A DNA stretch of 61,751 nt from a virus. Taxonomy: Duplodnaviria; Caudoviricetes. The stretch lies in the IMG/VR virus record IMGVR_UViG_3300009149_010511, positions 1 to 61,751 of that record; one strand, 5' to 3'. Shown here in pieces: positions 1,208 through 24,208 of this stretch. Below the pieces are notes generated by a model, which did not search any database, was not told the DNA's origin, and was given only the letters and a program-made list of their open reading frames with translations. Numbering within the stretch: the first letter of the stretch is position 1; each line of letters begins with the position of its first letter. A program made the translations under genes and the position numbers.

Positions 1208-1222
1208 GGAGAAATAAACTAA
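1184..1222 (+). pseudogene. 12-aa mini-ORF MSKKKQLKGEIN, a remnant copy of the start of the 2757 gene
   Basis: GGAG SD; matches MNKKKQLK of the 2757 gene; its TAA overlaps the next ATG (TAATG). Confidence 0.6.
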
Positions 1223-2490
1223 TGGATACTGTTAAATTAACTAGCCACGACTTAGGGTGGCATATAGGGTCTTTGGACATTTTAAGTAGTTACGAGAGTT
1301 CTAGTATAATGATTAAACTCTTTGAGTTTCGAAATCAAGACTTAGGTAAAGGAAAGACTACTACTCCTTATACATTTTATGGTTATGACAAACAACTAAG
1401 CAAATCCTCTTTAGGAAGACTAGGACCATTTATCGCTACTTATTTTGACGCTGGCCCAAAGCGAAGCTCTAATTGGCTTATATGGTATCTACCGGAAGGC
1501 ATTAATACTTTAAAACAGATTGAACAGCTTCCGGCAAGTTGGTATAAACAAATTTGGAATAAACTACTCGCAGTTGCTGCTAAAAAAGCCGGAGAACATG
1601 CTATTGCTGGTGCAAGCAAGAGCTTGATACAAGAAGGCACGCAGCGAGGTAGGCATGAGTTATATGGGAAAAAAATTAACCTTATTATAAGTGGTGCATC
1701 TTTAAAAGGGAAATTAAAGCCTATAGGAGGCGATCTAGATCTTCCGAATGAAGTACAAAAAGCAGAAAAACCCAGTAAAGCATACAATGTAAATGATATG
1801 TTTGGCAATATTAGTGCAAAAGATGTTATTACCAATCCTTTAGATATAGCTAAGAGTGTAAAAAAAGCAGCCCCGGCTGCAGCAGCCGACGCAGAGAAAG
1901 CGATTAATTCTATTAAAGACGCAGCAAAATCAGGTAATGTAGAAGGTGTAGCAAAAGTAGTTGAGAAGGTTACCGAAGGCACAGTGTCTGAGCAAGACTT
2001 AAAAGATATGTCATCAGGAAAAATTCCCGATTCGCTGAATACTATGGTTAAGGATATAAATAAGGATATAGATAAGGATCCTATAAAAAAAGAAGCGTTA
2101 GAGATTGTTAAAAGCAAGAAAAGTTTTCTACAAAAAGTTTTTTCAAAAATTAAGACTATTTTTAAGGAGCACAAAGCTTTAGTAGTACTTATAGGTAGTC
2201 TTATTATAGCAGGTCTCGCAATAGTTGTGTATGTTAAATTAAAATCAAAGAAAAATACTAAGGCTGCAGAATCAGTTTTAGACTCTTTCTGTAGTATAAA
2301 CGATTCTGCCTTCCTAGAAGACACTTCTTCTGATATAGCGAAAATGCTTTTAGCTCTTGGTGCAATGGGATTAATTGCTAAGAGCTTAAAAGGTCTTTTT
2401 TCAAAAGAGTCATCTGGAGCAGATAGAGCTAGATGGGGAGCTACATTACTAATTACGCTTGCTGCAGTATTAGGGTCTGCAGCAGCTTAA
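1222..2490 (+). CDS. Membrane protein of the variable-N-terminus/shared-TM-anchor family
   Basis: AAGGAG SD; KDPIKKEALEIVK...KALVVLIGSLIIAGLAIVVYVKLKSKK then AES...FLED and two more hydrophobic segments. Confidence 0.8.
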   Translation: MDTVKLTSHDLGWHIGSLDILSSYESSSIMIKLFEFRNQDLGKGKTTTPYTFYGYDKQLSKSSLGRLGPFIATYFDAGPKRSSNWLIWYLPEGINTLKQIEQLPASWYKQIWNKLLAVAAKKAGEHAIAGASKSLIQEGTQRGRHELYGKKINLIISGASLKGKLKPIGGDLDLPNEVQKAEKPSKAYNVNDMFGNISAKDVITNPLDIAKSVKKAAPAAAADAEKAINSIKDAAKSGNVEGVAKVVEKVTEGTVSEQDLKDMSSGKIPDSLNTMVKDINKDIDKDPIKKEALEIVKSKKSFLQKVFSKIKTIFKEHKALVVLIGSLIIAGLAIVVYVKLKSKKNTKAAESVLDSFCSINDSAFLEDTSSDIAKMLLALGAMGLIAKSLKGLFSKESSGADRARWGATLLITLAAVLGSAAA

Positions 2491-2520
2491 AATTGACATA
2501 ATATAACTTAGAGGTAATAA

Positions 2521-2760
2521 ATGTTTAAATTTCTTAAATGGTATTTGCTTATAGGAATTATTTCCACTATATGGTACAATGCTGAAGATGCTCTCTGTGA
2601 TGTAACCATAACTGAATTAGTGCAGGATTATGATGAACGCATTGTATGTGGTGGCGTTTTTCTTGCTTTGGTTGCGATATCTGTAGTTGTAATGCCATTT
2701 TTTCTTCCTCTTTTGTTATTTGCAAAGTTAAAGAAAAGTGTAGTTGGAGACAAACAATGA
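2521..2760 (+). CDS. Small two-TM membrane protein
   Basis: GAGG SD, two hydrophobic stretches, ATGA overlap with the next gene. Confidence 0.7.
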   Translation: MFKFLKWYLLIGIISTIWYNAEDALCDVTITELVQDYDERIVCGGVFLALVAISVVVMPFFLPLLLFAKLKKSVVGDKQ

Positions 2761-2780
2761 ATAAAAAGAAGCAACTTAAA
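2734..2780 (+). repeat. 47-bp direct repeat, copy 2
   Basis: See 1161-1207; includes the SD and first 8 codons of the 2757 gene. Confidence 0.95.
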
Positions 2781-3467
2781 CTAGATGAATTACAAAAGGA
2801 ATTCGAGAAGTTAGATAGAACTTCCTCAAGACATGACCCTAGAGTATTAACACATGCTTTTTCTCTTGCTAGGGATGGCAAAGTAGAAGAAGCTGCGGAT
2901 GCTATCATGTTTGTCTATGATGAGTTGCCTAAAGAAAAAATAGTCGCTATCTTATCTGAGCCTCCAGGAGAAGAACTTGCTGCATTGCTTTCTGATGCTA
3001 ACAAAGCAATTAACAACTCAAAGCTAAAACATGACAAAGAGTTTGAAAGACTCAAAAAAGAAGTTGCTGACGTACAGAAACCGCTTATTGCTAAAATTTT
3101 AGCTAGCATAAAGAAATTCGTTACTGATAGAAGAGTGTTAGCTATAGTAGGTGTACTTGTTATAACAGCACTTGCAGTTATTGCTTATAGAAAATATAAA
3201 CAAGGTAAAGGTGATTCAATAACTAAAGCAACTGAATCTTTACTTGAGGTATCTCCTTTACTTACTAAAGCAACAAGTAAGAAGACTATCGGTACTCTTA
3301 CTATTGTATTAGGTATCCTATCATTAGTTCTAGCTACATTAAGACTTGTTAAACTTGTTAATTCAGACAAAGACATTACAGCAGAGGGCGGTGTACAGAT
3401 TGTTATATCTTATCTAGCAGGAATTATTACTTTACTGAAAGGTATCTCAATGCGTACGGCCTCATAA
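2757..3467 (+). CDS. Membrane protein of the shared-TM-anchor family (start revised from 2646)
   Basis: GGAG SD before ATG 2757; RRVLAIVGVLVITALAVIAYRKYKQ then ATESLLE and two more TM segments. Confidence 0.8.
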   Translation: MNKKKQLKLDELQKEFEKLDRTSSRHDPRVLTHAFSLARDGKVEEAADAIMFVYDELPKEKIVAILSEPPGEELAALLSDANKAINNSKLKHDKEFERLKKEVADVQKPLIAKILASIKKFVTDRRVLAIVGVLVITALAVIAYRKYKQGKGDSITKATESLLEVSPLLTKATSKKTIGTLTIVLGILSLVLATLRLVKLVNSDKDITAEGGVQIVISYLAGIITLLKGISMRTAS

Positions 3468-3478
3468 GAGATAATGAA

Positions 3479-3850
3479 ATGAAAAATACACAGAAGTTGC
3501 TAGATGACAAGTTTCGAGAAGCTGTTAGACTTTATCCCAACCAGATTAAGTTTTTTGCAGCATGTGGCGCTAATGTGGATGTAACAAACAGATTAGGCAA
3601 CACTTCTTTAATGTTAGCAGTATTCTTTGAAGAAGTGCACACTGTAAACACTTTAATTGAGTGTGGCGTTAATATAAACGCACAGAACCGTAATGGCGAT
3701 ACAGCTTTAATGATGGCTATTAGAAGCGGTAATAAAGAAATAATTAAGATATTGATTGACGCAGGAGCAAAGACATACGTTACAGATAAAGCAGGCAACG
3801 ATGCATTTACTAAGTTTTATACTACTCAACTAAATCAAAATTCTAAATAG
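3479..3850 (+). CDS. Ankyrin-repeat protein
   Basis: GANVDVTNRLGNTSLMLA, GVNINAQNRNGDTALMMA, GAKTYVTDKAGNDA. Confidence 0.92.
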   Translation: MKNTQKLLDDKFREAVRLYPNQIKFFAACGANVDVTNRLGNTSLMLAVFFEEVHTVNTLIECGVNINAQNRNGDTALMMAIRSGNKEIIKILIDAGAKTYVTDKAGNDAFTKFYTTQLNQNSK

Positions 3851-3861
3851 AAGGTGAATCT

Positions 3862-4218
3862 ATGATTATTCTAACATCAGAAGTAGTTAATGTAGCTGAT
3901 AAGTCTATTGGCTTATTTGGTGACTTAGTAAAGCAGTTCGGATCTCAGTACCCAGCAATCGCTTTATTTGCTCTTATTTTCATTGCTATACTTGCTTTAA
4001 TACTTTGGGGTGGTAAGAGCATGTTTAAAATGTTACTTGCTTTCTTTACAGCTAAAGATGTTAAGGAAGGCGAAAACCACTTAGCAGAAGTTAGACGACA
4101 GTTTGAAGCTATGTTTAAAAAACTTGATGTCATTGAAGATAAGATATCTGAGATACGCGGAGCTTTATTTATGAAAGCTAAAGAAGAAGAAAAATCTGAT
4201 GGAGATATTGATGTCTAG
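3862..4218 (+). CDS. Single-TM coiled-coil protein, possibly holin-like
   Basis: One TM (AIALFALIFIAILALILW) followed by a charged coiled coil; function inferred from architecture only. Confidence 0.45.
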   Translation: MIILTSEVVNVADKSIGLFGDLVKQFGSQYPAIALFALIFIAILALILWGGKSMFKMLLAFFTAKDVKEGENHLAEVRRQFEAMFKKLDVIEDKISEIRGALFMKAKEEEKSDGDIDV

Positions 4219-5197
4219 AGAAGTACCTACTATTGACGGAAGAGGAAGCATAGTTAAGCCAGACTACCCTTTTGATGGAAAGTTACTTTATAACCAATTA
4301 CTCGCTCGAGCGGCACTTCAAACTATGCTAGATGAAGAAATAGCTAAGAAAAGACTTGATAAAGAGCAGGCTCGTTTGAAGGAACAGCAAATGCGTTTTG
4401 ATCAAATTAAAAAGAATGCTAATATTAAACATGTAGTTTTATGGAATCAAGCTTTAGACAATGTATCACCAGATAATATAATGTTAGATGGTGTATTACT
4501 TCCTGCTATAACTAAAGGACAACAACGCGCAAGAAGTGTAGTTGTGAATAAAGTCTCTCGAGTATATTCAAAATACAAGGAAGATCGTCATAAAACAGAA
4601 GTATCCGAATTTGAAATTAGAAGAGTAGTAGGACCTAATGTAATAGCTGTAGAAGCACCACTTAATGAAAAAGACAGTGAAGGTCGGCAAGCAATCTTTG
4701 TAATTTATGTTGAATGTAAGAAAGCGTTAAACTCACGTGACATAATTCTTGTAATTGAAGCTATTAGAACTTTTTGCGGACTTGTTGGTATAAGTATAGC
4801 ACCTGCAGTACATAATAGTATTAAAGAACTTCTTGCAGGCAAACCTTCTATATGGCTAGTGTGTAAAGAAAAAGCTCGTGAAATGAAAGCTAAGTTAGTT
4901 AAAGCATTAGCCCCTGTGATGAAGAAAATCAAAGAGCGTAAAAAGCAGATAATCATTATAGTACTAGCACTAACTGTTCTTACTATAGCCCTTTATTACT
5001 TATACATGTACAAAAAGAAGAAGGTTTCTGCTGATGTAGTTAAAACACTAGTAACAGCTTCTACAACTAAAAGTTCTCATGATATAGTAAAAGAAATGAA
5101 ATCAGCAGATGATGCAATGAACTCTGGTAATATAGAACAGGCAGGAAAACAAGCTGTAAGTGTAATGAAAACGTTATTTACTCAACCTCAAATTTAA
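4211..5197 (+). CDS. Membrane-anchored protein; C-terminal ~120 aa paralogous to 23279-24208
   Basis: GGAG SD before ATG 4211; W..C.EKAREMK...IIIIVLALTVLTIALYYLYMYKK...AMNSGNIEQAGKQAV. Confidence 0.8.
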   Translation: MSREVPTIDGRGSIVKPDYPFDGKLLYNQLLARAALQTMLDEEIAKKRLDKEQARLKEQQMRFDQIKKNANIKHVVLWNQALDNVSPDNIMLDGVLLPAITKGQQRARSVVVNKVSRVYSKYKEDRHKTEVSEFEIRRVVGPNVIAVEAPLNEKDSEGRQAIFVIYVECKKALNSRDIILVIEAIRTFCGLVGISIAPAVHNSIKELLAGKPSIWLVCKEKAREMKAKLVKALAPVMKKIKERKKQIIIIVLALTVLTIALYYLYMYKKKKVSADVVKTLVTASTTKSSHDIVKEMKSADDAMNSGNIEQAGKQAVSVMKTLFTQPQI

Positions 5198-5208
5198 AGG
5201 ATAACTAA

Positions 5209-5703
5209 ATGCACATAACTAACTTAGAAGAAGCAGCTTACTTTTCATTATTGGAAGATGTCGTTCCTATGTCTGCTATATCCTTAAAGGATGTAACTAA
5301 TATTAAAGAAGCAGTTGCTTTATTTAAATCATCCTCCGATTTTGAAGAGTCAGGTATAAGTGATAAAAACGAAGGTGGCTTGTGGAATTATATAATGTAT
5401 GAAGATAAGCCAGCAGGTTTAATTGTTGTAACTATTGTTGATCAGAAGAGAAGACGAATATGCGAAATAAATAGTGTAGTCATTAAAGAAGAATATCGAG
5501 GCAAAGGTTTGCTAAGAGGTGAGCTTTTACTATTTGATAAATATAAGGTAGACATGTTGATAGCTGAAGTTAAAGACTACAACACACAATCAGCAAAGGC
5601 ACATAAGAAACTAGGTTTCAAGAAACATAAACCAGATGTTGATTGGCATGACTTTGTGTTACGCAAGAAGGACTTAGTACCTAAAGGAGAAGATAATGCC
5701 TAA
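5209..5703 (+). CDS. GNAT acetyltransferase
   Basis: VVIKEEYRGKGL (motif A) and N..S..AHKKLGF (motif B). Confidence 0.88.
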   Translation: MHITNLEEAAYFSLLEDVVPMSAISLKDVTNIKEAVALFKSSSDFEESGISDKNEGGLWNYIMYEDKPAGLIVVTIVDQKRRRICEINSVVIKEEYRGKGLLRGELLLFDKYKVDMLIAEVKDYNTQSAKAHKKLGFKKHKPDVDWHDFVLRKKDLVPKGEDNA

Positions 5704-6016
5704 ACCAAACAAAGGTGAACATAAAGACGAATTCATAAGCAGGTGTATACCTAAACTTATTAAAGATGAGAAGTATCCACAGAAACAGGCAATAGCTATT
5801 TGTTATAGTTATTGGAAAGACAAAGACAAAAGAAAGATGGAAGGTGTTTTTTGTGAGTCTAGTGAACATGGCTCACTATATTATAGATCAGGCAAACCTA
5901 TTGCTATGTATGTAAAAGATCTTAGAAAACTATATGTACTTACTGAATACATGACTTCCTACCAAACAATGGCAGACGCTTGTGAAGCTAAAGGCGTTAC
6001 AGTTGTTGGTGTATAA
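5696..6016 (+). CDS. Small phage protein with a PKP..GE..EFISRC...QAIAICYSYW domain
   Basis: AAGGAG SD; similar N-terminus at 28500. Confidence 0.7.
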   Translation: MPKPNKGEHKDEFISRCIPKLIKDEKYPQKQAIAICYSYWKDKDKRKMEGVFCESSEHGSLYYRSGKPIAMYVKDLRKLYVLTEYMTSYQTMADACEAKGVTVVGV

Positions 6017-6175
6017 TTGTATAACGAATCTTTCTATGTAGAAAACTCTTCTGAGTTATTGGAATTATTATTTCTTGCACATTTACTCGCTGTTGAGGAC
6101 GAAGAATACGAAGAAGAAGACAATGACGAAATAATTGGTTTACTAAACAATTACGTTCTCCCACTGTATTTCTGA
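6017..6175 (+). CDS. 52-aa acidic hypothetical protein (not in ORF track)
   Basis: TTG start immediately after the previous stop; MYNESFYVENSSELLELL...VLPLYF. Confidence 0.45.
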   Translation: MYNESFYVENSSELLELLFLAHLLAVEDEEYEEEDNDEIIGLLNNYVLPLYF

Positions 6176-6192
6176 AAGCGAGGTAAACAAAA

Positions 6193-6300
6193 ATGGACCC
6201 TAAGCAGTTTATGATGGCTGTCCTTAGACTTACAACTCTAATATTTATATCAGGTGCAATTCTTTTCGCTGTACTTAATTTTGTAGACTTTATTCTTTAG
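6193..6300 (+). CDS. 35-aa hydrophobic membrane peptide (not in ORF track)
   Basis: GAGG SD; MDPKQFMMAVLRLTTLIFISGAILFAVLNFVDFIL. Confidence 0.6.
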   Translation: MDPKQFMMAVLRLTTLIFISGAILFAVLNFVDFIL

Positions 6301-6311
6301 GAGATGATAGC

Positions 6312-7865: not shown

Positions 7866-7963
7866 CTTACTGATTTTCGGTAGCAATATGGAATAGTTCG
7901 ACAAACACACTAATTGAAATATTAAGCGGTTGTTTACATTATTACGAGGAGGTGATAACCCAT

Positions 7964-8131: not shown

Positions 8132-8156
8132 TAATTAATACAGGAGGAAAGTACTT

Positions 8157-9872
8157 ATGGCTAGTAATGTTATCAGCCCTGGCGTATATAGGCGGATAAT
8201 CGACCTCTCTACTTTTGTAGATTCCGTGCCTAGCACAATTGCGTTCATTTGTTTTCTGTCAGAAAAAGGTGAAGACAATGTTCTCAAGTTTGTTAGTTCA
8301 CAAGAAGAGTTGATCACTAAAAATGGTCAGCCTAACATCAACAGGTATGGACAAGGTCTGTATAATGCAGATCAGTTCCTACAGAGGTCACAGTCCCTTT
8401 ACTACGTTAGAGTAACTGCACCAGACGCATGTTTTGCTAACGTGTTTGTAACACTTGCTAACTCAGTGGATGACAAGTTCACAACAACATCACATGCAGA
8501 TGTTGAAACTGTTTCCGAGTTAGAAACAATTCTTGCAAGCACAACAGGAGATCCGAACTTTATTGCTTTTTACGGTGTTGGAAGAGGCACGTATTACAAC
8601 ACGACAGCAGTAACCTTAACACCTTCTTCAAGTCTTGCTGGACTAGACACTTATGTGATCGACATCTGGGAAGAAGATCTGACAGGTGATATGGTTATTA
8701 TTGAGTCGTTTGTTGGCTCTCTCAATCCGGATCAGCAGTACAATGGCAGATCCATTTATATCGAAGACATCGTTAACACTTATTCAAACATCTTGAATTG
8801 TCGTGTTAATGTTGCCAACATGACTGAATACCTCAGTTTTAAAGCGTTTGCTGATGCAGGAAATCCAGCAGGATACACAGGACCTATTACTTTCTGGTAT
8901 ACCGTTGGACCTCCAGTTCAGTATACAAAGATTTCTGATCCTTTCAGTGCTTACATTTTACTTGCTGGTGGATTTGATTCAGACATGTACAATGTAGACG
9001 GAACAGTTAACTGGGTAGCCGCTGAGCAATACTTAGCTCAGGCTTATCTTGGTGATCTTCCTTACTACGATCCATCCGTAGGTGATACCGACAGAACTTT
9101 CTTTACAGTTGTATTTGATGCAGACTATCCAGACGGAGTTAAAGACTCTATCAAAGCTCTGTGTGAAACACGTGAAGACTGTGTTGCTATTATGGACAAT
9201 GGTTTCCACACTGGTCCTAATGGTATTCAGGCTGCTATTGATGATGCAGAAGGCGGAGGCGTTCATGATTTCAATAGCTGGTATGTCGCACTATACGAAA
9301 ATCATACACTTGTATACGACAGATATACAGGCAGAAGAATCTGGTTGTCTCCTTCCTATTGGATGAGTGCAATCATTCCTACTAACGATAGAGTAGCTGA
9401 ACCTTGGTTTGCTGCTGCAGGCTATAATAGAGCCGCTCTTAGTGGTATTAAAGAAGGCGCACTGTATCCAACTAAAGGAGATAGAGATAGGTTTTACGAA
9501 ATCCAATTGAATCCTATCGCTCTCTTGAAACCAGGTTGGGTTGTCTGGGGACAGCAAACCAAATGGGACAAACCGTCTGCCCTTAGAGATCTGAACATTG
9601 TAAGGTTGCTGCTTTACATAGATGCAGCTCTTAAACAGTTTGCATTGTTCTACATCTTTGAACAGAATGACTATTTCACATGGTCATCGTTCCAGGATAG
9701 AGTTATTACGTTCCTGGAAGACATCGTGGCAAGGCGCGGTCTGTTCTCATATCAGGTTAAAGTGTTCGCAACTGAATATGAATTGCAGACAAACTCTTTC
9801 CATGCTGACATTTGGCTGAAGGCAATCCCTACAGTTGAAAAGATCTTCCTCAATTATACAATCACGAAGTAA
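8157..9872 (+). CDS. Contractile tail sheath protein (T4 gp18-like)
   Basis: ISPGVYRRIIDLS N-terminus; PWFAAAGYNRA, LYEIQLNPI-like, VVWGQQT, LRDLNIVRLL, FEQND motifs. Confidence 0.95.
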   Translation: MASNVISPGVYRRIIDLSTFVDSVPSTIAFICFLSEKGEDNVLKFVSSQEELITKNGQPNINRYGQGLYNADQFLQRSQSLYYVRVTAPDACFANVFVTLANSVDDKFTTTSHADVETVSELETILASTTGDPNFIAFYGVGRGTYYNTTAVTLTPSSSLAGLDTYVIDIWEEDLTGDMVIIESFVGSLNPDQQYNGRSIYIEDIVNTYSNILNCRVNVANMTEYLSFKAFADAGNPAGYTGPITFWYTVGPPVQYTKISDPFSAYILLAGGFDSDMYNVDGTVNWVAAEQYLAQAYLGDLPYYDPSVGDTDRTFFTVVFDADYPDGVKDSIKALCETREDCVAIMDNGFHTGPNGIQAAIDDAEGGGVHDFNSWYVALYENHTLVYDRYTGRRIWLSPSYWMSAIIPTNDRVAEPWFAAAGYNRAALSGIKEGALYPTKGDRDRFYEIQLNPIALLKPGWVVWGQQTKWDKPSALRDLNIVRLLLYIDAALKQFALFYIFEQNDYFTWSSFQDRVITFLEDIVARRGLFSYQVKVFATEYELQTNSFHADIWLKAIPTVEKIFLNYTITK

Positions 9873-9946: not shown

Positions 9947-10642
9947 ATGCCAGCAAATCCAAATCCTTTTGCAGCACGAAGACTTAACAGGTTCTTTGGC
10001 GGCACAAATGCGCAAAGAGACCCTTATGTGTCTGGATTCTTTCTAATCCAGTTTAGATCACTACCACAAGACATGATACCAGATGATAGTGGAAAAATTC
10101 TAACCGCCGTATGTACTGCTGTTACTCTACCAGATTATTCACTAGACAAAGTTACAGTCAATGCACTTGGTGGACTGAAATTCCATGTTCCTGGAGCATT
10201 AACAATCGGTGAAACTTGTTCACTGACATTCACTGAGTATCAGTATTTGCCAGTATTCAATACTATCCGTGATTGGTCACATGCTATTAGGAATAACATT
10301 CTTGGTTTCTCCAACCATGATTCATTAGTAGGCACTGACGCTTATGTACAGAACAAGTACAAAGCTGGTTTGCTTGTTGCTTACTGTAGACCAAACATGC
10401 AGGAAGTTGAATTCTATGCTTATCTATCAGGTGTATGGCCTCTCAAGGTTCCTACAGATGGTCTTAATGCTGAAATCGCAACAGTAGAAAAGAAAGATCT
10501 TACTGTTGACTTCTCAGTTGATCTTCTTCACCTTGATGAATGGGTCAAACAAGAATGCCAGAATATGGTTGATGACATCCGTGGCTCAGACATCAACAAT
10601 ATTATTAATCTTGACAACTTCACTATCGGTGGACAGAGCTAG
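9947..10642 (+). CDS. Tail tube protein (T4 gp19-like)
   Basis: Follows the sheath; CTAVTLPD, TCSLTFTE, LSGVWP..VP, LTVDFSVD match the tube beta-fold pattern. Confidence 0.8.
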   Translation: MPANPNPFAARRLNRFFGGTNAQRDPYVSGFFLIQFRSLPQDMIPDDSGKILTAVCTAVTLPDYSLDKVTVNALGGLKFHVPGALTIGETCSLTFTEYQYLPVFNTIRDWSHAIRNNILGFSNHDSLVGTDAYVQNKYKAGLLVAYCRPNMQEVEFYAYLSGVWPLKVPTDGLNAEIATVEKKDLTVDFSVDLLHLDEWVKQECQNMVDDIRGSDINNIINLDNFTIGGQS

Positions 10643-10651: not shown

Positions 10652-12994
10652 ATGGCAATACTTAAAGAACGATTTCCCATTGAGTATGATGAGTTACGTG
10701 ACGAGTTAAAATCTTTAATAGAAGAAAAGTTTCAAACAGAGAACCCGGATGTTTATGAGTCCGGGTTCATTGCTTTCTTTACTGATGCATTAGCTACCGC
10801 ATCATTAGATTCACTTTTCTACTCATCTATGACTTATAAGGAAGCATTTCTTTCTCAGGCTGTACTGCCCGAATCTGTATTGAATATTGCACAGCAACTT
10901 TCTTACAATGTTCCTAATGCAATACCGTCTGAAGTTGATATTTTAATCTCAGTGCCTTTCGCTAAAAATGGCGTTAGGCTCTGGGATTATATCCAATTTA
11001 CATTTCCTAAGTGGACTAGGTTTTCAGCCTCGTCTTTACCTTTTCTACTTCCGTATGATGTAATCTTTAATTTCAATTATGACCCTGATGCTTTTGTAAA
11101 CAATTTATACAAGCAAACGGATACGGCTATCTCAAAGATTCCTTTTGAATTCAGCACAGTAGAGCCAGATCCAGTTGGACGACCTGGAGAGACTGATACT
11201 TACTTACAGTTCCTAGTAACAGGCGAACAGTATAACATAGAGGAATATACTTTTACAGCACCTAGACCAGAACCACTTAGGTTTAATACTATAGAAGTTG
11301 GTTTCTCTGATCAAGTATACAAAACAGAAGTATATATAAGACCTCCAAACGATGGTGCTGAATATGAATTATGGACAGAAGTTGATAATGTGTTTCAACT
11401 TAATTATGGAGAAAAAGGATACGCAACTAGCGTATTTCAAGATAAGGTAGTTTTCACTTTCGGTAATGGTATCTACGGACGCATTCCTCTTACAGAGTCT
11501 AGCATATTAATTAAGGTATTCGAGACTAAAGGTAAAGAAGGCAAAGTCGTTGCAGGTACAGTTACTACTGCACCTAGAATTTATAATGATGCTCCTACAG
11601 GCGGCATTGTAACTATGTATGTTTCTAATCCTAGAGTTTCTACTGATGGACAGAATAGAGAGACTATAGAGCAGACTAGAAGAAATGCTAGAGATTACGC
11701 ACGCGCTGTAAATGGTTTAGTATCAGAAAGAAACTATGAAAATTTAGGAGCTGTACTTCAGATACCTTTACAGGACTCAATGGCTATTATAAAAAGATCA
11801 GACATTCATTCAAATGAGATCTTTACTTATATAGCAACTAAGTTTTCTGATACTGAATTAGTTCCTAGTAGGTCAGATGTCGTAACCTTTGATAACTTAG
11901 TTCTGCAACCTATTACGAAGGACGGCTACACTTTCCGTTGCCCCTTCGAGATCTATCCTAACATTGCTTCAAATTCATTGGATTACAGGTATGTGGCTAA
12001 AAGTTTAACAGGCAATGTTGACTTAATCGCAACAACTGAAGAAGCAAAGAACCATGCAGCAGTATTAACTGGTTATGTAGCCACCTATGATTCCGTAGCA
12101 AGAACCTTTACATTAAAGATCCCTTACAACTATGTAAAACTTGATAGTGAAGGAAATGATGATCCAACATATCCACCTAAGCTACGACTGTATGGACAAA
12201 TGGGATTACATTCTTACGTATTTAATAATGACACAGGTAACAGATTGTTTGATGTTATTATTGATCGTGATGATGTTGAAGACGGTCTAACAACTATTAC
12301 AGTTGACTTTAAGTATTATGATGATTCAGTTCCTACTGAGAAACTTCTTAGAACATATAAGATGAATTTCATCTTAGTTCAGAATTTAGACTCACTGATT
12401 GCAAGCCCTACAAAAGACCTAGGCGGCAACATTATAGAAGCGTATGATGTTCCTTTAATCGAAGAAAGTTTTTATCTTTCTAACTTGCAGTGGCTTGATA
12501 TAAACATGCTGCAGCAAATGGCTATGTTTGCTGATGTTGTCGTTAGGTATCGTATTATGACTGACCAAGTGTATTTAAAGTTTGCTAATACTATCGGTAA
12601 AGTTCATAACATCGAATATAACGATACTAATCCAAATGCTGTTAAGACGTATGTATCACCTAACTTTCCTCTACCTATAGAAATTAGTATGCGTGTTTAT
12701 ATTAAAGAACAAAACAACGCGCAAGCTGATGTCGTTATTAGAGAAGTTAAGGAAGCTATTTATGAATACTTTAAGCCTAAGTTTGGTTTCGAAGTAAACA
12801 TTTATAAATCAGAAATAACCAAAGTTGCACAAAATGTTGATAACGTTGAATTTGTTGAACTTATTGAGCCTTATGATAGTATAGTTTATGACTACTATAG
12901 AAAAGACTTAACTAAGCAACAGCTAATTGAATTCACTCCTGAGTTTACTTGGTTCAACGAAAGCAATATACAAATTGAAATTATAGTAGACTAA
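10652..12994 (+). CDS. Baseplate wedge protein (T4 gp6-like)
   Basis: EYDELRDELK, EAFLSQAVLPESVLNIAQQLSY, FTFGNGIYGRIP, ETIEQTRRNA...VSERNYE motifs. Confidence 0.88.
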   Translation: MAILKERFPIEYDELRDELKSLIEEKFQTENPDVYESGFIAFFTDALATASLDSLFYSSMTYKEAFLSQAVLPESVLNIAQQLSYNVPNAIPSEVDILISVPFAKNGVRLWDYIQFTFPKWTRFSASSLPFLLPYDVIFNFNYDPDAFVNNLYKQTDTAISKIPFEFSTVEPDPVGRPGETDTYLQFLVTGEQYNIEEYTFTAPRPEPLRFNTIEVGFSDQVYKTEVYIRPPNDGAEYELWTEVDNVFQLNYGEKGYATSVFQDKVVFTFGNGIYGRIPLTESSILIKVFETKGKEGKVVAGTVTTAPRIYNDAPTGGIVTMYVSNPRVSTDGQNRETIEQTRRNARDYARAVNGLVSERNYENLGAVLQIPLQDSMAIIKRSDIHSNEIFTYIATKFSDTELVPSRSDVVTFDNLVLQPITKDGYTFRCPFEIYPNIASNSLDYRYVAKSLTGNVDLIATTEEAKNHAAVLTGYVATYDSVARTFTLKIPYNYVKLDSEGNDDPTYPPKLRLYGQMGLHSYVFNNDTGNRLFDVIIDRDDVEDGLTTITVDFKYYDDSVPTEKLLRTYKMNFILVQNLDSLIASPTKDLGGNIIEAYDVPLIEESFYLSNLQWLDINMLQQMAMFADVVVRYRIMTDQVYLKFANTIGKVHNIEYNDTNPNAVKTYVSPNFPLPIEISMRVYIKEQNNAQADVVIREVKEAIYEYFKPKFGFEVNIYKSEITKVAQNVDNVEFVELIEPYDSIVYDYYRKDLTKQQLIEFTPEFTWFNESNIQIEIIVD
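10741..10780 (+). terminator. Intragenic hairpin in the 5' end of the baseplate gene, possible attenuator
   Basis: GAACCCGGA-N10-TCCGGGTTC perfect 9-bp stem followed by ATTGCTTTCTTT. Confidence 0.5.
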
Positions 12995-17774: not shown

Positions 17775-17789
17775 AAAGGAGAATAAATA

Positions 17790-18679: not shown

Positions 18680-18756
18680 CCAAAGAAAAATACTGTGTTT
18701 GAGATATATATCCATAAACACAACAATTGATAATTATACTCTTGGAGGATACTGTT

Positions 18757-19425
18757 ATGAAAATTGTAGAGTCGATTAAAGAATTCTATGCAAGTATGTC
18801 GGGTAAGGACAAGGCTGAAGTAAAGGAAATGCTTAATAACTTAAAGAATGAGGATTCTGCTAAGTATAAAGCTACTATCGAGGACTTAGAAAAAGAAACA
18901 GGAGCCCCTGCTAAAGAAGAGTTTGAGAAAGAAGATAGTCCTGAAGTTGATAAGTTTGCAGACAGGATGAAAAAAACTCTTAATGATGTACAAGCTAAGT
19001 ATATGAATCAGGATTACTTCAGAAAAATCTATGATGAAGTTAAAGGAAAAGCAAGACCTTTAATTGAAAGGCTTATGAAGCAGATGAGAGAGAAGATTAC
19101 AAACAAAAAATTCCTTGCTATCGCAGGTGCTGTTATTCTGTTTGGTATTGCATTGATTATATATTTCAATATGAAAAGAAAAGAAGGTGAACCTACAGCC
19201 GAAGCTATTCAAGAAGCAGTAGCTGGTTTTGAGCAGTCTGCTTTAACCGAAGCTGTAGCAGTAAAATTTTCAACTATAGCAGGACTCTTCCTAATTCTTC
19301 TAGGGTTTAAATATATTATACAACTACCTGACGATAGAGATAAGATGAATGATGCTGAGAAGAAATTATTTAACTCTGCAATAGGACACATAACTGTAGG
19401 AATGCTTTTACTTTTTGTAATCTAA
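18757..19425 (+). CDS. Membrane protein of the shared-TM-anchor family (start revised from 18727)
   Basis: GGAGG SD; NKKFLAIAGAVILFGIALIIYFNMKRK then ALTEA and two TM segments. Confidence 0.82.
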   Translation: MKIVESIKEFYASMSGKDKAEVKEMLNNLKNEDSAKYKATIEDLEKETGAPAKEEFEKEDSPEVDKFADRMKKTLNDVQAKYMNQDYFRKIYDEVKGKARPLIERLMKQMREKITNKKFLAIAGAVILFGIALIIYFNMKRKEGEPTAEAIQEAVAGFEQSALTEAVAVKFSTIAGLFLILLGFKYIIQLPDDRDKMNDAEKKLFNSAIGHITVGMLLLFVI

Positions 19426-19436: not shown

Positions 19437-21539
19437 ATGCCAACATCTCGAGACCAACTTCTCCATAAAGCAGGAATTGCCGAACTGCGTGATGGCTTAA
19501 CTCTTGAACTGTTAAGAGATAATCCTAACACAGGTTGGATAGTAAAGTCTTGCCGTACTAAGGATGCTGTAATAGGTGTACAAAAAATTAAAGGGATAGA
19601 AACTATCATTTGGTATGATGGTTCTTTCCTAGACGGCACGTGGCGTGGAGGAATTTGGCACTCGGGTCAATGGATGAACGGAACCTGGAAGTCAGGTGAA
19701 TGGAAAGATGGCACTTGGCATAAAGGTGAATGGAAAGATGGAACTTGGTATAATGGTGACTGGAAGTCAGGTACCTGGACAAATGGTACCTGGCTTGCCG
19801 GTAACTGGTTAAGTGGTAGTTGGTATGGTGGAAACTTCGGAACTGCCAAATGGCGCTATAGTACATGTATTTGGAAAAACGGAACATGGTATAATGGTGT
19901 ATTCAGAGGCGGTATATGGAGTGATGGTGATTGGCAAAACGGAACATGGAATGATGGTACGTGGAAAAAAGGTTCATGGAGAAATGGAACGTGGAAATCC
20001 GGAGAATGGGACAAAGGTGATTGGTATAGAGGAGATTGGTTAACTGGTGAATGGTATGGTGGTACTTGGTACGATGGTAAATGGAGAGATGGCAAGTGGG
20101 CTGATGGTTCATGGAAGTCTGGTGTCTGGTTTGACGGAACATGGAAAGATGGAACGTGGGAAAACGGAAAATGGCATAATGGTCTCTGGCTGAAAGGTTC
20201 TTGGAGAGGAGGCCATTGGTTTAAAGGAATATGGAAAGAAGGCAGTTGGAGAGCCGGAACCTGGTACGATGGTACGTGGCATTCTGGTACATGGGGTTCT
20301 GGGACTTGGAAAAGTGGTACTTGGATGACTGGAATGATTTTTGATCCAACTACTCAAAGATATATTGACTCTAATAAACCTCCAAAGGTTGTAGAGAAAG
20401 AAGAAAAGCAACAACATGATAATCCTTCTCCAAATGAGTCTGGTGTTTATATGCCGCAGCACCCTCAGCAAGACTCAACATTAGAGGAGAACAACATCTC
20501 TAAGCAAGGAGAAACAAGTCAGATGCACAATTTAACGTTACAGGAGATACTGCAAGATTCCTCAAGTTCTGTATATTTACCTATGTTACTAGGGTCACTA
20601 CGCAGTTTCCGTAAAGTATACATAGCTGTTAAAGATCAGGTTGAGAGCAAAACGGAAAAGGCTATTTGGGGCATCATGCAAACATTTTGTGCAACTCTTG
20701 GTATTACAGGAGCTGTCTTTCAAGAAGCAATAGTCTATAACATGCATTCAAAACACCCTGACTTATTTGAGAAGGGCATCCTTCCTTCTCGTTGGGAAGC
20801 TGCTAAAAAATATTTAAACAAAAAAAGACAGACAGCAGTAATTATACCTGAACTAAAGGAATGCGTCGATGAATTTTTAGTTAGAGTTTCTGGTAAAGGC
20901 AAACCTGCTATAAAGGTTACTTATGATGAAACGGTTGCTGGTTATACAGCACAAGCTTATACTATTGCTACAGGTACAAGCACAATCACACTTTATTTAC
21001 CGTCCATAGTACTAATGTATAGAGTTGCTAAAAAGCACAATGTTTCTTTTAAAGTAATGCTGATGGGAATCTTAATGCATGAATATGGACATATTGCCAA
21101 AATAAGCAGCACACCTTACGATGCGTTAGGTTATAAACTATTAAAAAGTGTAGTTCCTTACATAATCAGTGAATTTATCAAAAAGTTAGCAGTCGATGCA
21201 TTTATTAAGAAATTAAAGAAACGCTTAAACACTTTAGACGATAAGCAGAAGCAAAGAATACTTATTATAACGTTTGCTGCATTGATTGCGTATTCAATAG
21301 CACAGATACTTATTGTGGCAAGAGTAAACCGCAATGTGGAATATGAAGCTAACAGCTATTTAAACGCTGAAGAAAAGAAGGCGATGGCTATTTATTTCAA
21401 AGAAGGTGTTGCAAAAAAGCAAAAGGTTACGCCTATTGACCAAGGAAAGTTACATAAGATATTAAAAGAATTGTTAACTTTGTTTAATAAGTATCCTAAC
21501 TCTACTCAATTTATAAAAGATTTAACTAAGGAGTCATAA
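19437..21539 (+). CDS. Multidomain protein: Trp-Gly pentapeptide repeat plus C-terminal membrane Zn-metallopeptidase (M48-like)
   Basis: Roughly 45-48 WxxGx units; later ILMHEYGH (HExxH), a TM segment and EYEAN as a third-ligand-like motif. Confidence 0.75.
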   Translation: MPTSRDQLLHKAGIAELRDGLTLELLRDNPNTGWIVKSCRTKDAVIGVQKIKGIETIIWYDGSFLDGTWRGGIWHSGQWMNGTWKSGEWKDGTWHKGEWKDGTWYNGDWKSGTWTNGTWLAGNWLSGSWYGGNFGTAKWRYSTCIWKNGTWYNGVFRGGIWSDGDWQNGTWNDGTWKKGSWRNGTWKSGEWDKGDWYRGDWLTGEWYGGTWYDGKWRDGKWADGSWKSGVWFDGTWKDGTWENGKWHNGLWLKGSWRGGHWFKGIWKEGSWRAGTWYDGTWHSGTWGSGTWKSGTWMTGMIFDPTTQRYIDSNKPPKVVEKEEKQQHDNPSPNESGVYMPQHPQQDSTLEENNISKQGETSQMHNLTLQEILQDSSSSVYLPMLLGSLRSFRKVYIAVKDQVESKTEKAIWGIMQTFCATLGITGAVFQEAIVYNMHSKHPDLFEKGILPSRWEAAKKYLNKKRQTAVIIPELKECVDEFLVRVSGKGKPAIKVTYDETVAGYTAQAYTIATGTSTITLYLPSIVLMYRVAKKHNVSFKVMLMGILMHEYGHIAKISSTPYDALGYKLLKSVVPYIISEFIKKLAVDAFIKKLKKRLNTLDDKQKQRILIITFAALIAYSIAQILIVARVNRNVEYEANSYLNAEEKKAMAIYFKEGVAKKQKVTPIDQGKLHKILKELLTLFNKYPNSTQFIKDLTKES
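19611..20335 (+). repeat. Coding 15-bp-period repeat (WxxGx)n
   Basis: TGG recurs every 15 nt in frame. Confidence 0.9.
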
Positions 21540-21541
21540 CA

Positions 21542-23263
21542 ATGAGCACCATTAGACCTATATCGCATATTACAAATCAAACCTTAGATGGGGTTAAAGA
21601 AGGGTCAGACATAATTGCTAGCAAGCATGTTCGTCCTATTGACTCCGCATTAGCTTCTAGTAAGCAAGAAGCTGTAATGCCTGAAGGTGATGAAGATCCT
21701 AAAGGAACTGAAAAGAAAGAACCTTTAACTGAAGCATCTACAAAACTACCATTTAAACAGCACGACGAAAAACAAATGCATATGTTTAAAAAACAAATGG
21801 CGCATAAAATAGCTTTAGCTGTTAATGATGCAAAAGGTGATAAAGAGAAAAAGAAGGAAGCTACAAGACTCGCTAAAGAAATAATCAAGCTTGCTCAAAA
21901 TACATTCGGTAAGCATTATGCGTTTAGGGATACATTTTGTGATAATATAATATATTTTGATACATTCACTAAAGCTCTTATTTGGCAACTGTATGTCGCA
22001 ACAGGTAAAACAGTTAAGTTACCACAAGTAACAGAAAGTGTAACTAGCCCTAAGTCAACAGTAAGGGCTGAAATGTATCGTAATAATAAAGTATTATATG
22101 ATACTTTCTTTGAACAGCGTATTGCTGCAGCTAAAAGAGTTTTCCCTGCACTAAAACAGTTAGCAGAAGAATACATTACTAACGGTAAAGAATTTAAAGA
22201 ATTTTTTGAACAGGAAAAGGATAACTTAGAAGGAAGAGGTTTTCTGTTTCTTCCTTGGATAATTAAGTTAGTTACAGCTTGGTCATTAGAAGAGTGGCTT
22301 AAAGTTCATATAGATGATTATGATCAGGTAGCAGATTTGTACAATACTTTTCTTAAAATGAATGAAAGTAAGTTTATTGAAGAAGCAGTATCTGCTAAAT
22401 ACTACAAAGGTGAACAAGCAGCACCTAGTAAACTTTTCATAGACATTCTTCAAATAGACTCAGGTGTAGAGAATATGAATTATCTTCTTTATGGTTATAC
22501 AGGAACTAATGCTGTAACAGAGATACTTAATGAGAATAAACAAGCTAAAGTTTCTACTATGGAAGAATTAAAAGAAGCTAATAGAAAAGATTCAATGATA
22601 CCTATGTCTAAGCATGAAAAATTCGGCATCTCTCAATTGCGCGATGGCTTGACAATGGAAATGTTAGAACGAAGATTCAAATGGGTCTTAGAAGCGAAAA
22701 CAAGAAATGCTGTTTTAGGAATTTCTCAAAATTCAGACTCTAATAAAATATCTTTAGTCTGGTACTCAGGAGACTGGGAAGGTGGAGAATGGAAAGACGG
22801 TACTTGGATGAGTGGTACATGGCATAGAGGGACCTGGAACAAAGGTACTTGGGTTAACGGAAAATGGCACAAAGGTGATTGGATAAATGGAGAATGGCAG
22901 TTTGGAGTGTGGTACTCTGGACATTGGTATAATGGCACATGGAAGAATGGCCTTTGGGTCAAAGGTAAATGGCACAATGGTTTACATCAGTTAGGCTCTT
23001 GGGAAAATGGCATCTGGATTAAAGGAACCTGGGCTGGTGGAACTTGGAAAAGCGGTCTTTGGAATAATGGATTATGGCAGCAAGGAACTTGGGAACAAGG
23101 TACTTGGAAATCGGGCAAATGGAAAGCAGGCTCTTGGAAAGCTGGTAAATGGGGTAAAGGCTCAGTGTATGACTCTTCGAAAGATAAGTTTGTACATATT
23201 AAGATTAATCCTATGGAATACTATAAAACAGTTGAACACCTCGATGCCGAGGAAGAAGAATAA
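21542..23263 (+). CDS. Multidomain protein: helical domain shared with 24225/24849 plus C-terminal Trp-Gly pentapeptide repeat
   Basis: MY..K..Y....FPALK....Y...M...KF.....YY.G domain; GISQLRDGLT cap then about 27 WxxGx units. Confidence 0.78.
   Translation: MSTIRPISHITNQTLDGVKEGSDIIASKHVRPIDSALASSKQEAVMPEGDEDPKGTEKKEPLTEASTKLPFKQHDEKQMHMFKKQMAHKIALAVNDAKGDKEKKKEATRLAKEIIKLAQNTFGKHYAFRDTFCDNIIYFDTFTKALIWQLYVATGKTVKLPQVTESVTSPKSTVRAEMYRNNKVLYDTFFEQRIAAAKRVFPALKQLAEEYITNGKEFKEFFEQEKDNLEGRGFLFLPWIIKLVTAWSLEEWLKVHIDDYDQVADLYNTFLKMNESKFIEEAVSAKYYKGEQAAPSKLFIDILQIDSGVENMNYLLYGYTGTNAVTEILNENKQAKVSTMEELKEANRKDSMIPMSKHEKFGISQLRDGLTMEMLERRFKWVLEAKTRNAVLGISQNSDSNKISLVWYSGDWEGGEWKDGTWMSGTWHRGTWNKGTWVNGKWHKGDWINGEWQFGVWYSGHWYNGTWKNGLWVKGKWHNGLHQLGSWENGIWIKGTWAGGTWKSGLWNNGLWQQGTWEQGTWKSGKWKAGSWKAGKWGKGSVYDSSKDKFVHIKINPMEYYKTVEHLDAEEEE
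22759..23160 (+). repeat. Coding 15-bp-period repeat (WxxGx)n
   Basis: TGG recurs every 15 nt in frame. Confidence 0.9.
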
Positions 23264-23278
23264 TCTCAGGAGGATATA

Positions 23279-24208
23279 ATGACTAAACTAACAGAAAAGC
23301 AAGCACCTTGGCCGGTTCAAGGAATAAAAAATCAGCCACCTTATGATGTAAGTACATTTGCAGAAGGAGAAGCAGGGTGGTGGAACAAACCAAATGCTGA
23401 TCCTGTAAAAACAATGCTTCCTCCACAGTGGAAAGCAGCTCCTCTCAGAAGTGACGCTGCTAATATTGTATTAATTGGTAAACCGGGTGTAAAAGGTTGC
23501 TTAACAGCTACTCTACCTTACAAGACTACAATAGAAGTTGCACTGTATTGGGAGACGCCAGAAGAGGTTGCTGCTGGAAGGAGAAAAAACCCTTCTGCAC
23601 AGGAAATGTTAATAATGCGGTTCAAGCTTGAACCTTTCTGGGCTACACATTTTATTAACATCTTGGGAAGTTCAAACACCGAAAAAGAAATGCAAGAGAA
23701 GTTTGAACAGCTGGAACGAGAAGGATTCCCTGAAAGTAAGGAATCCACTTTAGATTCTGATATGCCAGAAGTTAGTTCTCAAGATGTCGACTCCTTACAA
23801 AAAGAAGCAGGTGTTGAACAAACAGGCGGAACAACTGATGTAGAGAACCCTCCTAAAGATTCACTCTGGCAAACATGTGTTAATAAAGCACGTGAAATGA
23901 AAGATAAGATTGCTAAGTTTCTTAGAGGAGTATTAGCAAAGATATCTGATAAACAGAAAAAGATCATTTTAATAATGCTCGCTATTACTGTACTTGCGAT
24001 TGCTCTTTACTATCTGTATAAGTATAAGAAACAAAACAGTAGTGCAGCGATTGCTTCCCTTTCTAAGAAAGAAGGCTTGTCTACTGTATCGGATTCAAAG
24101 TCATTGATCGGTACTATGTTTAAAGCTAAGCAAGCTATGGATAAAGGCAACGTTCCTGAAGCAGGTACACAAGCTGTTGCTTCTATGACTTATCTATTAA
24201 AACAATAA
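23279..24208 (+). CDS. Membrane-anchored protein; C-terminus paralogous to 4211
   Basis: W.TCVNKAREMKDK...IILIMLAITVLAIALYYLYKYKK...AMDKGNVPEAGTQAV. Confidence 0.8.
   Translation: MTKLTEKQAPWPVQGIKNQPPYDVSTFAEGEAGWWNKPNADPVKTMLPPQWKAAPLRSDAANIVLIGKPGVKGCLTATLPYKTTIEVALYWETPEEVAAGRRKNPSAQEMLIMRFKLEPFWATHFINILGSSNTEKEMQEKFEQLEREGFPESKESTLDSDMPEVSSQDVDSLQKEAGVEQTGGTTDVENPPKDSLWQTCVNKAREMKDKIAKFLRGVLAKISDKQKKIILIMLAITVLAIALYYLYKYKKQNSSAAIASLSKKEGLSTVSDSKSLIGTMFKAKQAMDKGNVPEAGTQAVASMTYLLKQ

Follow-up and report, generated by a model that had tools for sequence, protein, structure and literature searches.

Introduction

Large phages reorganise the cells that they infect, in ways that include lipid vesicles, yet only a small number of membrane proteins encoded by phages have been linked to this process. 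Phage-encoded inner-membrane proteins with basic juxtamembrane residues that serve superinfection exclusion or lysis control, such as T4 Imm, T4 Sp and the holins, are single-copy and mostly shorter than 150 amino acids (aa). Diverged paralogs are known from jumbo phages: the virion and inner-body groups of phiKZ and 201phi2-1 are soluble virion proteins that are clustered, partly interleaved with structural genes and similar over only part of their length. Here we describe a family of predicted membrane proteins in the uncultivated phage represented by IMG/VR record IMGVR_UViG_3300009149_010511 (Duplodnaviria; Caudoviricetes). Its genes share with the phiKZ and 201phi2-1 groups their clustering, their interleaving with structural genes and their partial similarity, but the family is defined by a transmembrane (TM) module. 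Like T4 Imm, Sp and the holins, its members have basic residues next to the membrane; in contrast to them, they form a set of at least nine paralogs of 222–517 aa with large soluble parts.

The stretch analysed, referred to here as the window, is the entire record (G000), a contig of 61,751 nucleotides (nt). CheckV estimated its completeness at 22%, suggesting a genome of roughly 280 kb. The stretch was present in one DNA run labelled as a subsurface metagenome. The eight family genes contained in the window occupy 8352 nt, corresponding to 34.5% of the first 24.2 kb and 13.5% of the contig; an uncultivated huge phage thus devotes about one third of a 24-kb block to one unnamed membrane-protein family. 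The family is real and ancient, shows partial modularity and belongs to an uncultivated huge-phage lineage, and its possible function is considered here from sequence features.

A shared module joins eight open reading frames and a ninth fragment

An initial annotation had described eight open reading frames (ORFs) with a common C-terminal anchor. All eight are present in the window, and an independent gene caller agreed on the length of seven (236, 222, 259, 517, 309, 483 and 328 aa). For ORF 1222, the caller placed the start 29 codons later (393 aa), and an orthologue described below, P0010, supports the 422-aa start. The 3' end of a further member lies at the left edge of the window, where a module profile (A2) matches positions 4–72. 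Because the last 37 residues of the database protein P0016 equal the translation of positions 1–114, P0016 is very probably the ninth member of this phage, cut by the window's edge and lying mostly upstream of it. The members are listed below, each named after its first position; bit scores are those of leave-one-out hidden Markov models (HMMs), and TM1 denotes the first helix of the module.

1..114, plus strand: 3' end (last 37 codons and stop codon) of the ninth member; translation identical to the C-terminus of P0016
1222..2490, plus strand: 1222, 422 aa; own alpha/beta N-terminal domain at about residues 1–225, module from about residue 226; TM1 at aa 320–338 (nt 2179–2235), followed by two weak hydrophobic helices; 48.4 bits
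2757..3467, plus strand: 2757, 236 aa, module only; TM1 at aa 126–144 (nt 3132–3188), TM2 and TM3 clear; 52.0 bits
4211..5197, plus strand: 4211, 328 aa, single-TM sub-clade; orphan N-terminal domain at about residues 1–200; module TM at aa 247–265 (nt 4949–5005), conserved C-terminal helix
6312..7865, plus strand: 6312, 517 aa; orphan N-terminal part from residue 1 to about 335–359; TM1 at aa 422–440 (nt 7575–7631), one clear and one weak further hydrophobic helix; 43.8 bits
14093..15544, plus strand: 14093, 483 aa; Lys/Glu-rich helical N-terminal part at about residues 1–340; TM1 at aa 384–402 (nt 15242–15298), TM2 and TM3 clear; 26.4 bits
15601..16380, plus strand: 15601, 259 aa, module only; TM1 at aa 104–122 (nt 15910–15966), longer linker, TM2 and TM3, short acidic tail; 35.8 bits
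18757..19425, plus strand: 18757, 222 aa, module only; TM1 at aa 119–137 (nt 19111–19167), TM2 and TM3 present; 51.2 bits
23279..24208, plus strand: 23279, 309 aa, single-TM sub-clade; orphan N-terminal domain at about residues 1–180; module TM at aa 229–247 (nt 23963–24019); 37.3 bits

The eight members and the neighbouring putative peptidase 19437 were compared by BLASTP with all 172 six-frame ORFs of at least 60 aa in the window. The eight were joined through their C-terminal parts. Six of them (1222, 2757, 6312, 14093, 15601 and 18757; hereafter the core six) formed a web of 28–48-bit matches, including 15601–18757 (48 bits, over almost the entire length of both proteins), 2757–18757 (42 bits), 1222–6312 (40–43 bits), 1222–2757 (39–40 bits) and 2757–14093 (28–30 bits). 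The remaining two, 4211 and 23279, matched each other at 73–96 bits with 47% identity over 120 residues, and reached the core six only through 2757, 6312 and 14093, at 26–34 bits (2757–23279, 31–32 bits).

To set these matches against composition, the residues of each module were permuted separately within the segments before, inside and after the TM helix, giving approximately 1000 shuffles per module. Leave-one-out HMMs scored all eight real modules at 26.4–52.0 bits, and the best shuffles at 9.3–19.0 bits, with no shuffle reaching the real score. Other hydrophobic ORFs of the window scored close to zero with an HMM of the core six (3862, -0.7; 16447, 2.2; 16926, 1.6; 17790, 0.6; and 36679, 0.8 bits). 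The similarity therefore goes beyond generic TM composition, and the common C-terminal module proposed in the initial annotation was confirmed. The convergence of all eight held fully for the core six, whereas 4211 and 23279 joined weakly: the core-six HMM gave 18.2 bits for 23279 and 7.4 bits for 4211 (best domain, 13.3). On the basis of these weak scores, we classify this pair as a distant sub-clade of a real family. The similar anchor suggested for the peptidase 19437 did not hold up. This protein scored -1.8 bits with the core-six HMM (expectation value, E, 23), its BLASTP match to 23279 was 24 bits (E 0.4–0.9), and it was absent both from the matches of a 14-sequence HMM (E<0.5) and from those of profile A2.

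Upstream of the module, five of the eight window members (1222, 4211, 6312, 14093 and 23279) carry approximately 180–360 residues of additional sequence. When the N-terminal parts, from residue 1 to 60 residues before TM1, were compared pairwise by BLASTP in a nine-sequence database, the best match had an E of 0.11. An HMM built from the full-length short proteins (2757, 15601 and 18757, and the relatives P0013 and P0015) matched the longer proteins only in their later residues, starting at residue 226 in 1222, 179 in P0010, 359 in 6312 and 349 in 14093, so 2757, 15601 and 18757 are essentially the module alone. The claim of unalignable N-terminal cargo thus applies to five members and fails for these three.

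Relatives are few and come mostly without genomic context

A search with a profile of the eight modules, as the initial annotation had proposed for the C-terminal region, recovered the window members and little else. Among 1,835,955,588 representative proteins there were 16 matches at E<=1e-3, of which eight were the window's own. Six others are credible relatives: P0009 (79.8 bits), P0010 (62.7), P0012 (46.0), P0013 (46.0), P0015 (38.6) and P0016 (37.2 bits, E 2e-4). We discounted P0011 as spurious (a repeat protein of 1289 aa with 11 short matching stretches) and left out P0014 as uncertain (77 aa, consisting of just a TM helix and a basic patch). In P0009, ankyrin repeats recognised by Pfam (Ank, 70 bits) are joined at a sharp boundary to a module that is 51% identical to that of 23279 over 131 aa. 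P0010 is a full-length orthologue of 1222 (27% identity), and P0012, P0013 and P0015 each have their own N-terminus. P0016 has its module at about residues 50–215, followed by a charged C-terminal domain of approximately 160 aa.

P0010 led to a second contig (G001), a 73-kb IMG/VR record estimated to be 25% complete, which encodes at least four members: g70593 (identical to P0010), g71974 (orthologue of P0016), g67451 (16.6 bits) and g5419 (16.4 bits). As in P0016, the module of g71974 is followed by a C-terminal domain of approximately 160 aa. The g67451 protein has a clear TM1 signature and continues into a C-terminal J-like region. We did not accept it as a J-domain protein, since this region scored 23.3 bits against the Pfam DnaJ cut-off of 27.8 and its HPD tripeptide reads HPA. 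The right end of G001, with g70593, g71974 and the start of an orthologue of the window's NUDIX gene, matches the left end of the window. Two members of the window phage (1222 and P0016) thus have orthologues in a second, distant phage.

Two further genes of G001 were noted. Between two family members, positions 68567–69853 (L008 11567–12853) encode a 428-aa protein with one hydrophobic helix at aa 134–152, ahead of an AAA/clamp-loader-like ATPase region (PHROG 1250, E 7e-23). G001 also contains a phage RNA-polymerase-like ORF (L005 8247–9611).

IMG/VR scans with P0009, P0012, P0013 and P0015 returned nothing; only P0010 gave a contig. A metagenome scan with P0009 found its own 1,024-nt contig and ankyrin-only matches, which offered no gene context. 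No relatives were found among GenBank phages by tblastn of 6312, 2757 and P0010. The search of jumbo phages likewise came back empty: profile A2, which recovers all eight members and the left-edge fragment in the window, matched nothing in phiR1-37, AR9, phiKZ, phage G, SPN3US, NCTB and Y3. Taken together, these comparisons describe a lineage-specific, old and much-diverged family of predicted phage integral membrane proteins, with at least nine members in this phage and at least four in G001.

Architecture of the module

The module is approximately 110–200 aa long. The alignments open with a KD(P/S) box and proceed through one helix and a second, basic helix to TM1, after which come a basic cluster and then an acidic stretch; beyond this lie zero to two further, less hydrophobic helices, forming a two-helix hairpin in most members. 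TM1 is a helix of approximately 21 residues (Kyte–Doolittle mean 2.4–3.2 in all eight window members) with a face of small residues and Tyr, [AG]-[GIA]-[ILF]-[AST]-L..Y; the Tyr at its end occupies the same alignment column in nine of the 14 aligned members. Lys and Arg flank TM1 in all 14, with 2–7 in the 15 residues before it and 3–5 in the 15 after it. P0013 is the only member with two before TM1, the other 13 having 3–7.

The acidic stretch, E-[STAC]-[LIVMAT]-[LIVMQTC]-[EDT], follows TM1 with a fixed spacing in 10 of the 14 members and is missing in four, including the sub-clade 4211/23279/P0009. At least four members have D or T as the last residue of the aligned motif (ESVLD, ETIMD, ETMLT and ESVLT). 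A looser pattern, [LIVM]-x-E within 30 residues after TM1, also occurs in 10 of 14.

Six members had been described as adding a linker and two more TM helices. With a clear helix defined as a 19-residue Kyte–Doolittle mean of at least 1.6, both are clear in four of these six, while 6312 has one clear and one weak helix and 1222 has two weak ones (1.38–1.55). The distance from the TM helix to the C-terminus is 63 residues in 4211 and 62 in 23279; the remaining members have further helices. Since tail-anchored proteins have a single TM helix within approximately 30 residues of the C-terminus, neither architecture is that of a tail-anchored protein. An N-terminal signal-like hydrophobic segment was found in none of the family proteins.

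Domain exchange, age and rearrangement

The initial annotation regarded the N-terminal parts as swappable. At the level of sequence comparison, such an exchange is demonstrated for a single sub-clade only: 4211, 23279 and P0009 share modules that are 47–51% identical and end at a sharp boundary, beyond which lie three unrelated N-termini, two of them orphan and one consisting of ankyrin repeats. The variable part is moreover not confined to the N-terminus. P0016, g71974 and g67451 carry their soluble additions on the C-terminal side, so either end of the module can bear one. Because 1222 and P0016 have full-length orthologues in the second phage, much of the family consists of old, vertically kept paralogs rather than freely swapped cassettes.

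A phylogenetic tree of 17 modules resolved only two clades, 4211/23279/P0009 and P0016/g71974, each with 100/100 support, and left 9 of the 14 inner branches unresolved. Terminal branches had a median length of 1.26 substitutions per site, so the family is old. The DNA of the 4211 and 23279 modules shares no long identity (best, 32 nt at 84%), and their relationship therefore does not stem from recent recombination.

Signs of rearrangement were found around 1222, in the form of a 66-nt direct repeat:

1147..1212, plus strand: copy 1, comprising the NUDIX gene's end, a ribosome-binding region and a truncated duplicate of the 5' end of 2757
2720..2785, plus strand: copy 2, at the true start of gene 2757

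The two copies are 86% identical and bracket gene 1222 together with a 79-aa hydrophobic ORF (2521–2760), so that the arrangement looks like an insertion or duplication scar. In G001, the orthologue of 1222 lies on the opposite side of the NUDIX gene. The repeat and this difference in gene order show that gene-sized pieces of the cluster have moved.

Searches of known families and folds

Judged by the curated libraries, the family is unnamed, as the initial annotation had supposed. All matches of the members to Pfam-A fell under the gathering scores (best E 0.0016); the sub-threshold matches were to unrelated TM or Lys-rich families (SpoIIIAH, YpjB and TraL). In PHROGs v4, seven of the eight members matched no family and 18757 had one weak N-terminal match (E 0.0026); no member matched a lysis or exclusion family in this library. 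Matches to NCBIfam 20 were all far under the cut-offs, and PADLOC 2.0 returned just noise at E>0.001. No toxin, defence or anti-defence domain was found in the members with Pfam, NCBIfam and PADLOC. Full-text literature searching, judged at the level of abstracts, found no publication on such a family.

The N-terminal parts were equally without counterparts. Sequence searches of the Protein Data Bank (PDB) with five N-terminal parts gave nothing significant. Word searches with the whole of 6312, residues 1–175 of 23279 and residues 1–205 of 4211 (the last against 5.8 billion clusters) returned self-matches only; they covered proteins of similar length, so split or fused forms may exist. The ESM Atlas gave no usable feature matches, with a predicted local distance difference test (pLDDT) of 0.36–0.40 for its own models.

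An AlphaFold2 model of 2757 was all helical (mean pLDDT 72.5, predicted template modelling score 0.70, from an 11-row alignment). It had no match at E<=0.001 in the Foldseek viral and PDB sets and only generic helical matches in VIA-wide (best Z 5.9). The AlphaFold2 model of 1222, built with a single orthologue, had a mean pLDDT of 37, too low for a fold search. A homodimer prediction of the 2757 module scored 0.00; run without controls, it weighs neither for nor against binding.

Genomic neighbourhood

Only three neighbours of the family genes are recognisable virion genes:

8157..9872, plus strand: tail sheath (family match)
9947..10642, plus strand: tail tube/virion protein (family match)
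10652..12994, plus strand: baseplate wedge (family match)

The best GenBank relatives of the sheath are from the jumbo phages phiR1-37, AR9 and PBS1, at approximately 27–28% identity. Megablast of the tail block found no near-identical DNA among GenBank phages, and an IMG/VR scan with the sheath found nothing. The scattering among virion genes described in the initial annotation therefore holds for these three, but the other recognisable neighbours are NUDIX, ankyrin, two GNAT and protease-like genes. A scan for sigma-70 promoters and terminators gave no more than the shuffle level, and counting of 8-mers revealed no shared upstream motif.

The NUDIX gene (115–1170) encodes 351 aa with a C-terminal NUDIX hydrolase domain (PHROG 1198, E 1e-13), its N-terminal half being without assignment. 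The two GNAT acetyltransferase paralogs (5209–5703 and 18278–18679; Pfam Acetyltransf_1, above threshold) each adjoin family members. A free-standing ankyrin gene (3479–3850; Pfam Ank_2, 59 bits) lies two genes upstream of 4211, and its product is 30% identical to the ankyrin part of P0009.

Further membrane proteins are encoded in the cluster block, among them one that is PrsW/CPBP-like and one that combines HExxH with a hydrophobic helix. The former, at 16926–17774, is a multi-pass hydrophobic protein with a weak PrsW match (E 4.3e-4, 20.3 bits against a cut-off of 23.5). It contains EEFAKR and HAVYN, which we take to be a CPBP/PrsW-type motif pattern. The latter, 19437, carries an HEYGH motif followed by a hydrophobic helix. 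It (19437–21539) and its neighbour (21542–23263) are adjacent large proteins that share a long run of Trp-centred five-residue repeats, G-x-W-x-x, with a BLASTP score of 160 bits between them. The repeat DNA has a 15-nt period and 34 copies of an 87-nt register. Neither protein matched a Pfam or PHROGs family. Short ORFs in apparently intergenic gaps of the cluster (6193–6300 and 2521–2760) encode one or two hydrophobic helices. By our own count, approximately 14 of approximately 27 genes in the first 24 kb encode a strong hydrophobic helix.

The minus-strand half of the contig contains a sigma-factor gene, a tRNA nucleotidyltransferase and an exonuclease. Because a sigma-factor-like gene is present (52609–53358, minus strand; PHROG 351, E 1.7e-24), the phage may redirect host RNA polymerase. 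Also on the minus strand, 47442–48104 encodes a lysozyme/transglycosylase-like protein with an N-terminal hydrophobic helix at aa 11–29, which may be a signal-anchored endolysin.

Possible roles of the family

We regard it as an even prospect that the shared part serves membrane targeting and assembly, so that variable domains come to sit on the membrane of the infected cell. The members would be made during infection and inserted into the host cytoplasmic membrane with TM1 as a signal anchor, and their large N-terminal parts would remain cytoplasmic. The latter is suggested by the lack of a signal peptide in proteins that have up to approximately 340–360 residues of their own sequence ahead of the module (up to approximately 420 before TM1), as long N-terminal domains are as a rule not exported without one. 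The module may thereby gather a variety of soluble domains on the cytoplasmic side of the host membrane: the orphan domains of the window members, ankyrin repeats in one relative, and charged or J-like C-terminal domains in others. It may also dock to a common partner, which could be further members of the family or a single membrane protein of phage or host. Because the face of TM1 and the acidic stretch are conserved beyond hydrophobicity, docking is probable, and the module would then do more than anchor proteins passively. The TM1 face is kept as well in the single-TM members, where no second helix of the same chain is available to pair with it.

Several observations weigh against this proposal. 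The positive-inside rule gives no orientation, as basic residues flank TM1 on either side. In members with three TM helices and a C-terminal soluble domain (P0016 and g67451), the membrane would separate the N-terminal from the C-terminal part; a C-terminus inside the cell, and hence an N-terminus outside, is favoured by the basic residues that follow TM3 and by the J-like domain, in conflict with the cytoplasmic placement given above. The helix before TM1, originally described as Lys-rich and amphipathic, is indeed basic, but its amphipathicity exceeds that of shuffles (p<0.05) in just two of the 14 members. Pfam, PHROGs, NCBIfam, PADLOC, PDB, ESM Atlas and word searches yielded no functional assignment for any of the window's cargo domains. 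The sequencing runs that contain the stretch include no RNA run. Finally, the family genes are on the same strand as the sheath, tube and wedge genes and tightly packed among them, so that virion components would fit as well as late non-structural proteins.

This last point leads to the possibility, which we consider unlikely but worth weighing, that the members are virion-borne ejection or pilot proteins. They would travel in the head or tail and enter together with the DNA; their hydrophobic helices, inserting into the host membrane from outside, would form or line an entry conduit or give rise to an early compartment bounded by membrane. The co-orientation of the genes and their interleaving with sheath, tube and baseplate wedge genes are consistent with this. 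Delivery from outside would also remove the problem of N-terminal domains on the outer face without a signal peptide, which the architectures of P0016 and g67451 hint at. The acidic stretch would then be a maturation-protease site. The [LIVM]-x-E pattern found after TM1 in 10 of 14 members resembles what we take to be the Glu-P1 sites of T4-type and phiKZ-type prohead proteases (L/I-x-E or S/A/G-x-E), which process head proteins such as the T4 internal proteins and the phiKZ inner-body proteins. A strict protease-site reading of the aligned motif was rejected, however, since its last acid is D or T in several members, and the sub-clade 4211/23279/P0009 does not have the motif at all. The lineage itself speaks for ejection, as the nearest relatives of the sheath are in phiR1-37, AR9 and PBS1, G001 has a phage RNA-polymerase-like gene, and related jumbo phages inject many proteins, as passages of one study describe with gp58 of Goslar as an example (10.1101/2023.09.20.558163). 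Yet the seven reference jumbo phages from which the family was absent include ones with published virion proteomes, and the NUDIX, ankyrin and GNAT genes of the same block are not typical virion parts.

We are equally doubtful that the members are ordinary fast-evolving paralogs without any swapping, whose N-termini diverged or were extended and whose redundant roles might lie, for instance, in the timing of lysis, in superinfection exclusion or in the control of membrane stress. With terminal branches of approximately 1.3 substitutions per site, and with most inner branches (9 of 14) unresolved, a loss of detectable N-terminal similarity is plausible for the core six, where 15601 and 18757 align over nearly their full length and the three short members consist of the module only. 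The full-length orthologues of 1222 and P0016 point the same way, as does the lack of long DNA identity, and hence of recent recombination, between the 4211 and 23279 modules. Uniform divergence nevertheless cannot yield the combination of a 47–51% identical module with unalignable N-termini, one of them ankyrin, that is seen in 4211, 23279 and P0009. Soluble additions at either end of the module are also difficult to reconcile with it, and the 66-nt repeat around 1222 and the different placement of the NUDIX gene in G001 indicate that cassette-like rearrangement occurred. Holin-like roles fit poorly. Holins have roughly 60–150 aa, 1–4 TM helices and a charged C-terminus and are genetically linked to an endolysin, whereas the members have 222–517 aa, and the only lysozyme-like ORF (47442–48104) lies more than 23 kb from the nearest member; we therefore rejected holins as an identification.

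It is far less probable that the members are substrates of a membrane protease, with cargo tethered in an inactive state until 16926 or 19437 cuts the juxtamembrane acidic stretch in a timed release. The PrsW/CPBP-like protein 16926 lies inside the cluster, 19437 combines HEYGH with a hydrophobic helix, and the acidic motif keeps a constant spacing from TM1 in 10 of 14 members. Both protease-like genes fall short of the curated thresholds, however, proximity is the sole link between enzyme and substrate, and the single-TM sub-clade is without the motif. G001 has family members, yet an orthologue of 16926 was not found there.

We give similarly little credence to a more specific idea, in which the module would be an address label for a phage-controlled lipid membrane. 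The nine or more paralogs, packaged and co-injected or else made very early, would build or decorate a membrane-bound compartment around the incoming genome, each bringing a different activity to its membrane, comparable to the early-infection vesicle of nucleus-forming jumbo phages. Passages on that vesicle in the published account mention no phage membrane protein (10.1101/2023.09.20.558163).

Chance likeness of TM and Lys-rich segments, which do attract noise, as the weak Pfam matches to SpoIIIAH, YpjB and TraL show, is refuted, because every shuffle was outscored, other TM ORFs were unmatched and just 16 of 1.84 billion proteins match.

The polymorphic membrane-effector system of the initial annotation is thus only partly supported: a common module on unrelated soluble parts was found in five of the eight members, but no toxin, defence or anti-defence domain was found in the members with Pfam, NCBIfam and PADLOC, and the suggested roles in superinfection exclusion or anti-defence, like the suggested phage-built lipid compartment, gained no direct support. 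The observation from which it started was largely right. If the module is a targeting or docking label, it could be a portable tag for sending proteins to the phage's membrane site of action, and its bearers would form a defined candidate list for membrane-linked steps of infection. If the members are only a diverged paralog group, the result is a useful new family definition and little more.

Comparison with known systems

The joining of a constant part to variable parts recalls the Rhs and CDI polymorphic toxins. In those systems, the constant delivery part is N-terminal, the variable toxin is C-terminal and an immunity gene is adjacent. In the present family, most variable parts are N-terminal, and small immunity genes paired with the members are absent. 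The constant part being C-terminal or central, and no toxin domain having been found, we rejected a polymorphic toxin system as an identification.

For one member of the second phage, a comparison with a host protein is possible. In E. coli DjlA, a chaperone-recruiting domain is tethered to the inner membrane, and g67451 similarly joins a TM region to a C-terminal J-like domain. The J-like match differs from DjlA in being sub-threshold and in reading HPA, and the window members have no J domain.

The Inc proteins of Chlamydia offer an analogy, with no homology implied. Here too, a parasite makes many proteins in which a common hydrophobic element displays unrelated soluble domains on a membrane. 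The Inc element is a bilobed hydrophobic hairpin with little sequence conservation, and the proteins are delivered by type III secretion, whereas the phage module has detectable sequence conservation, a single strong TM helix with basic flanks and no secretion signal.

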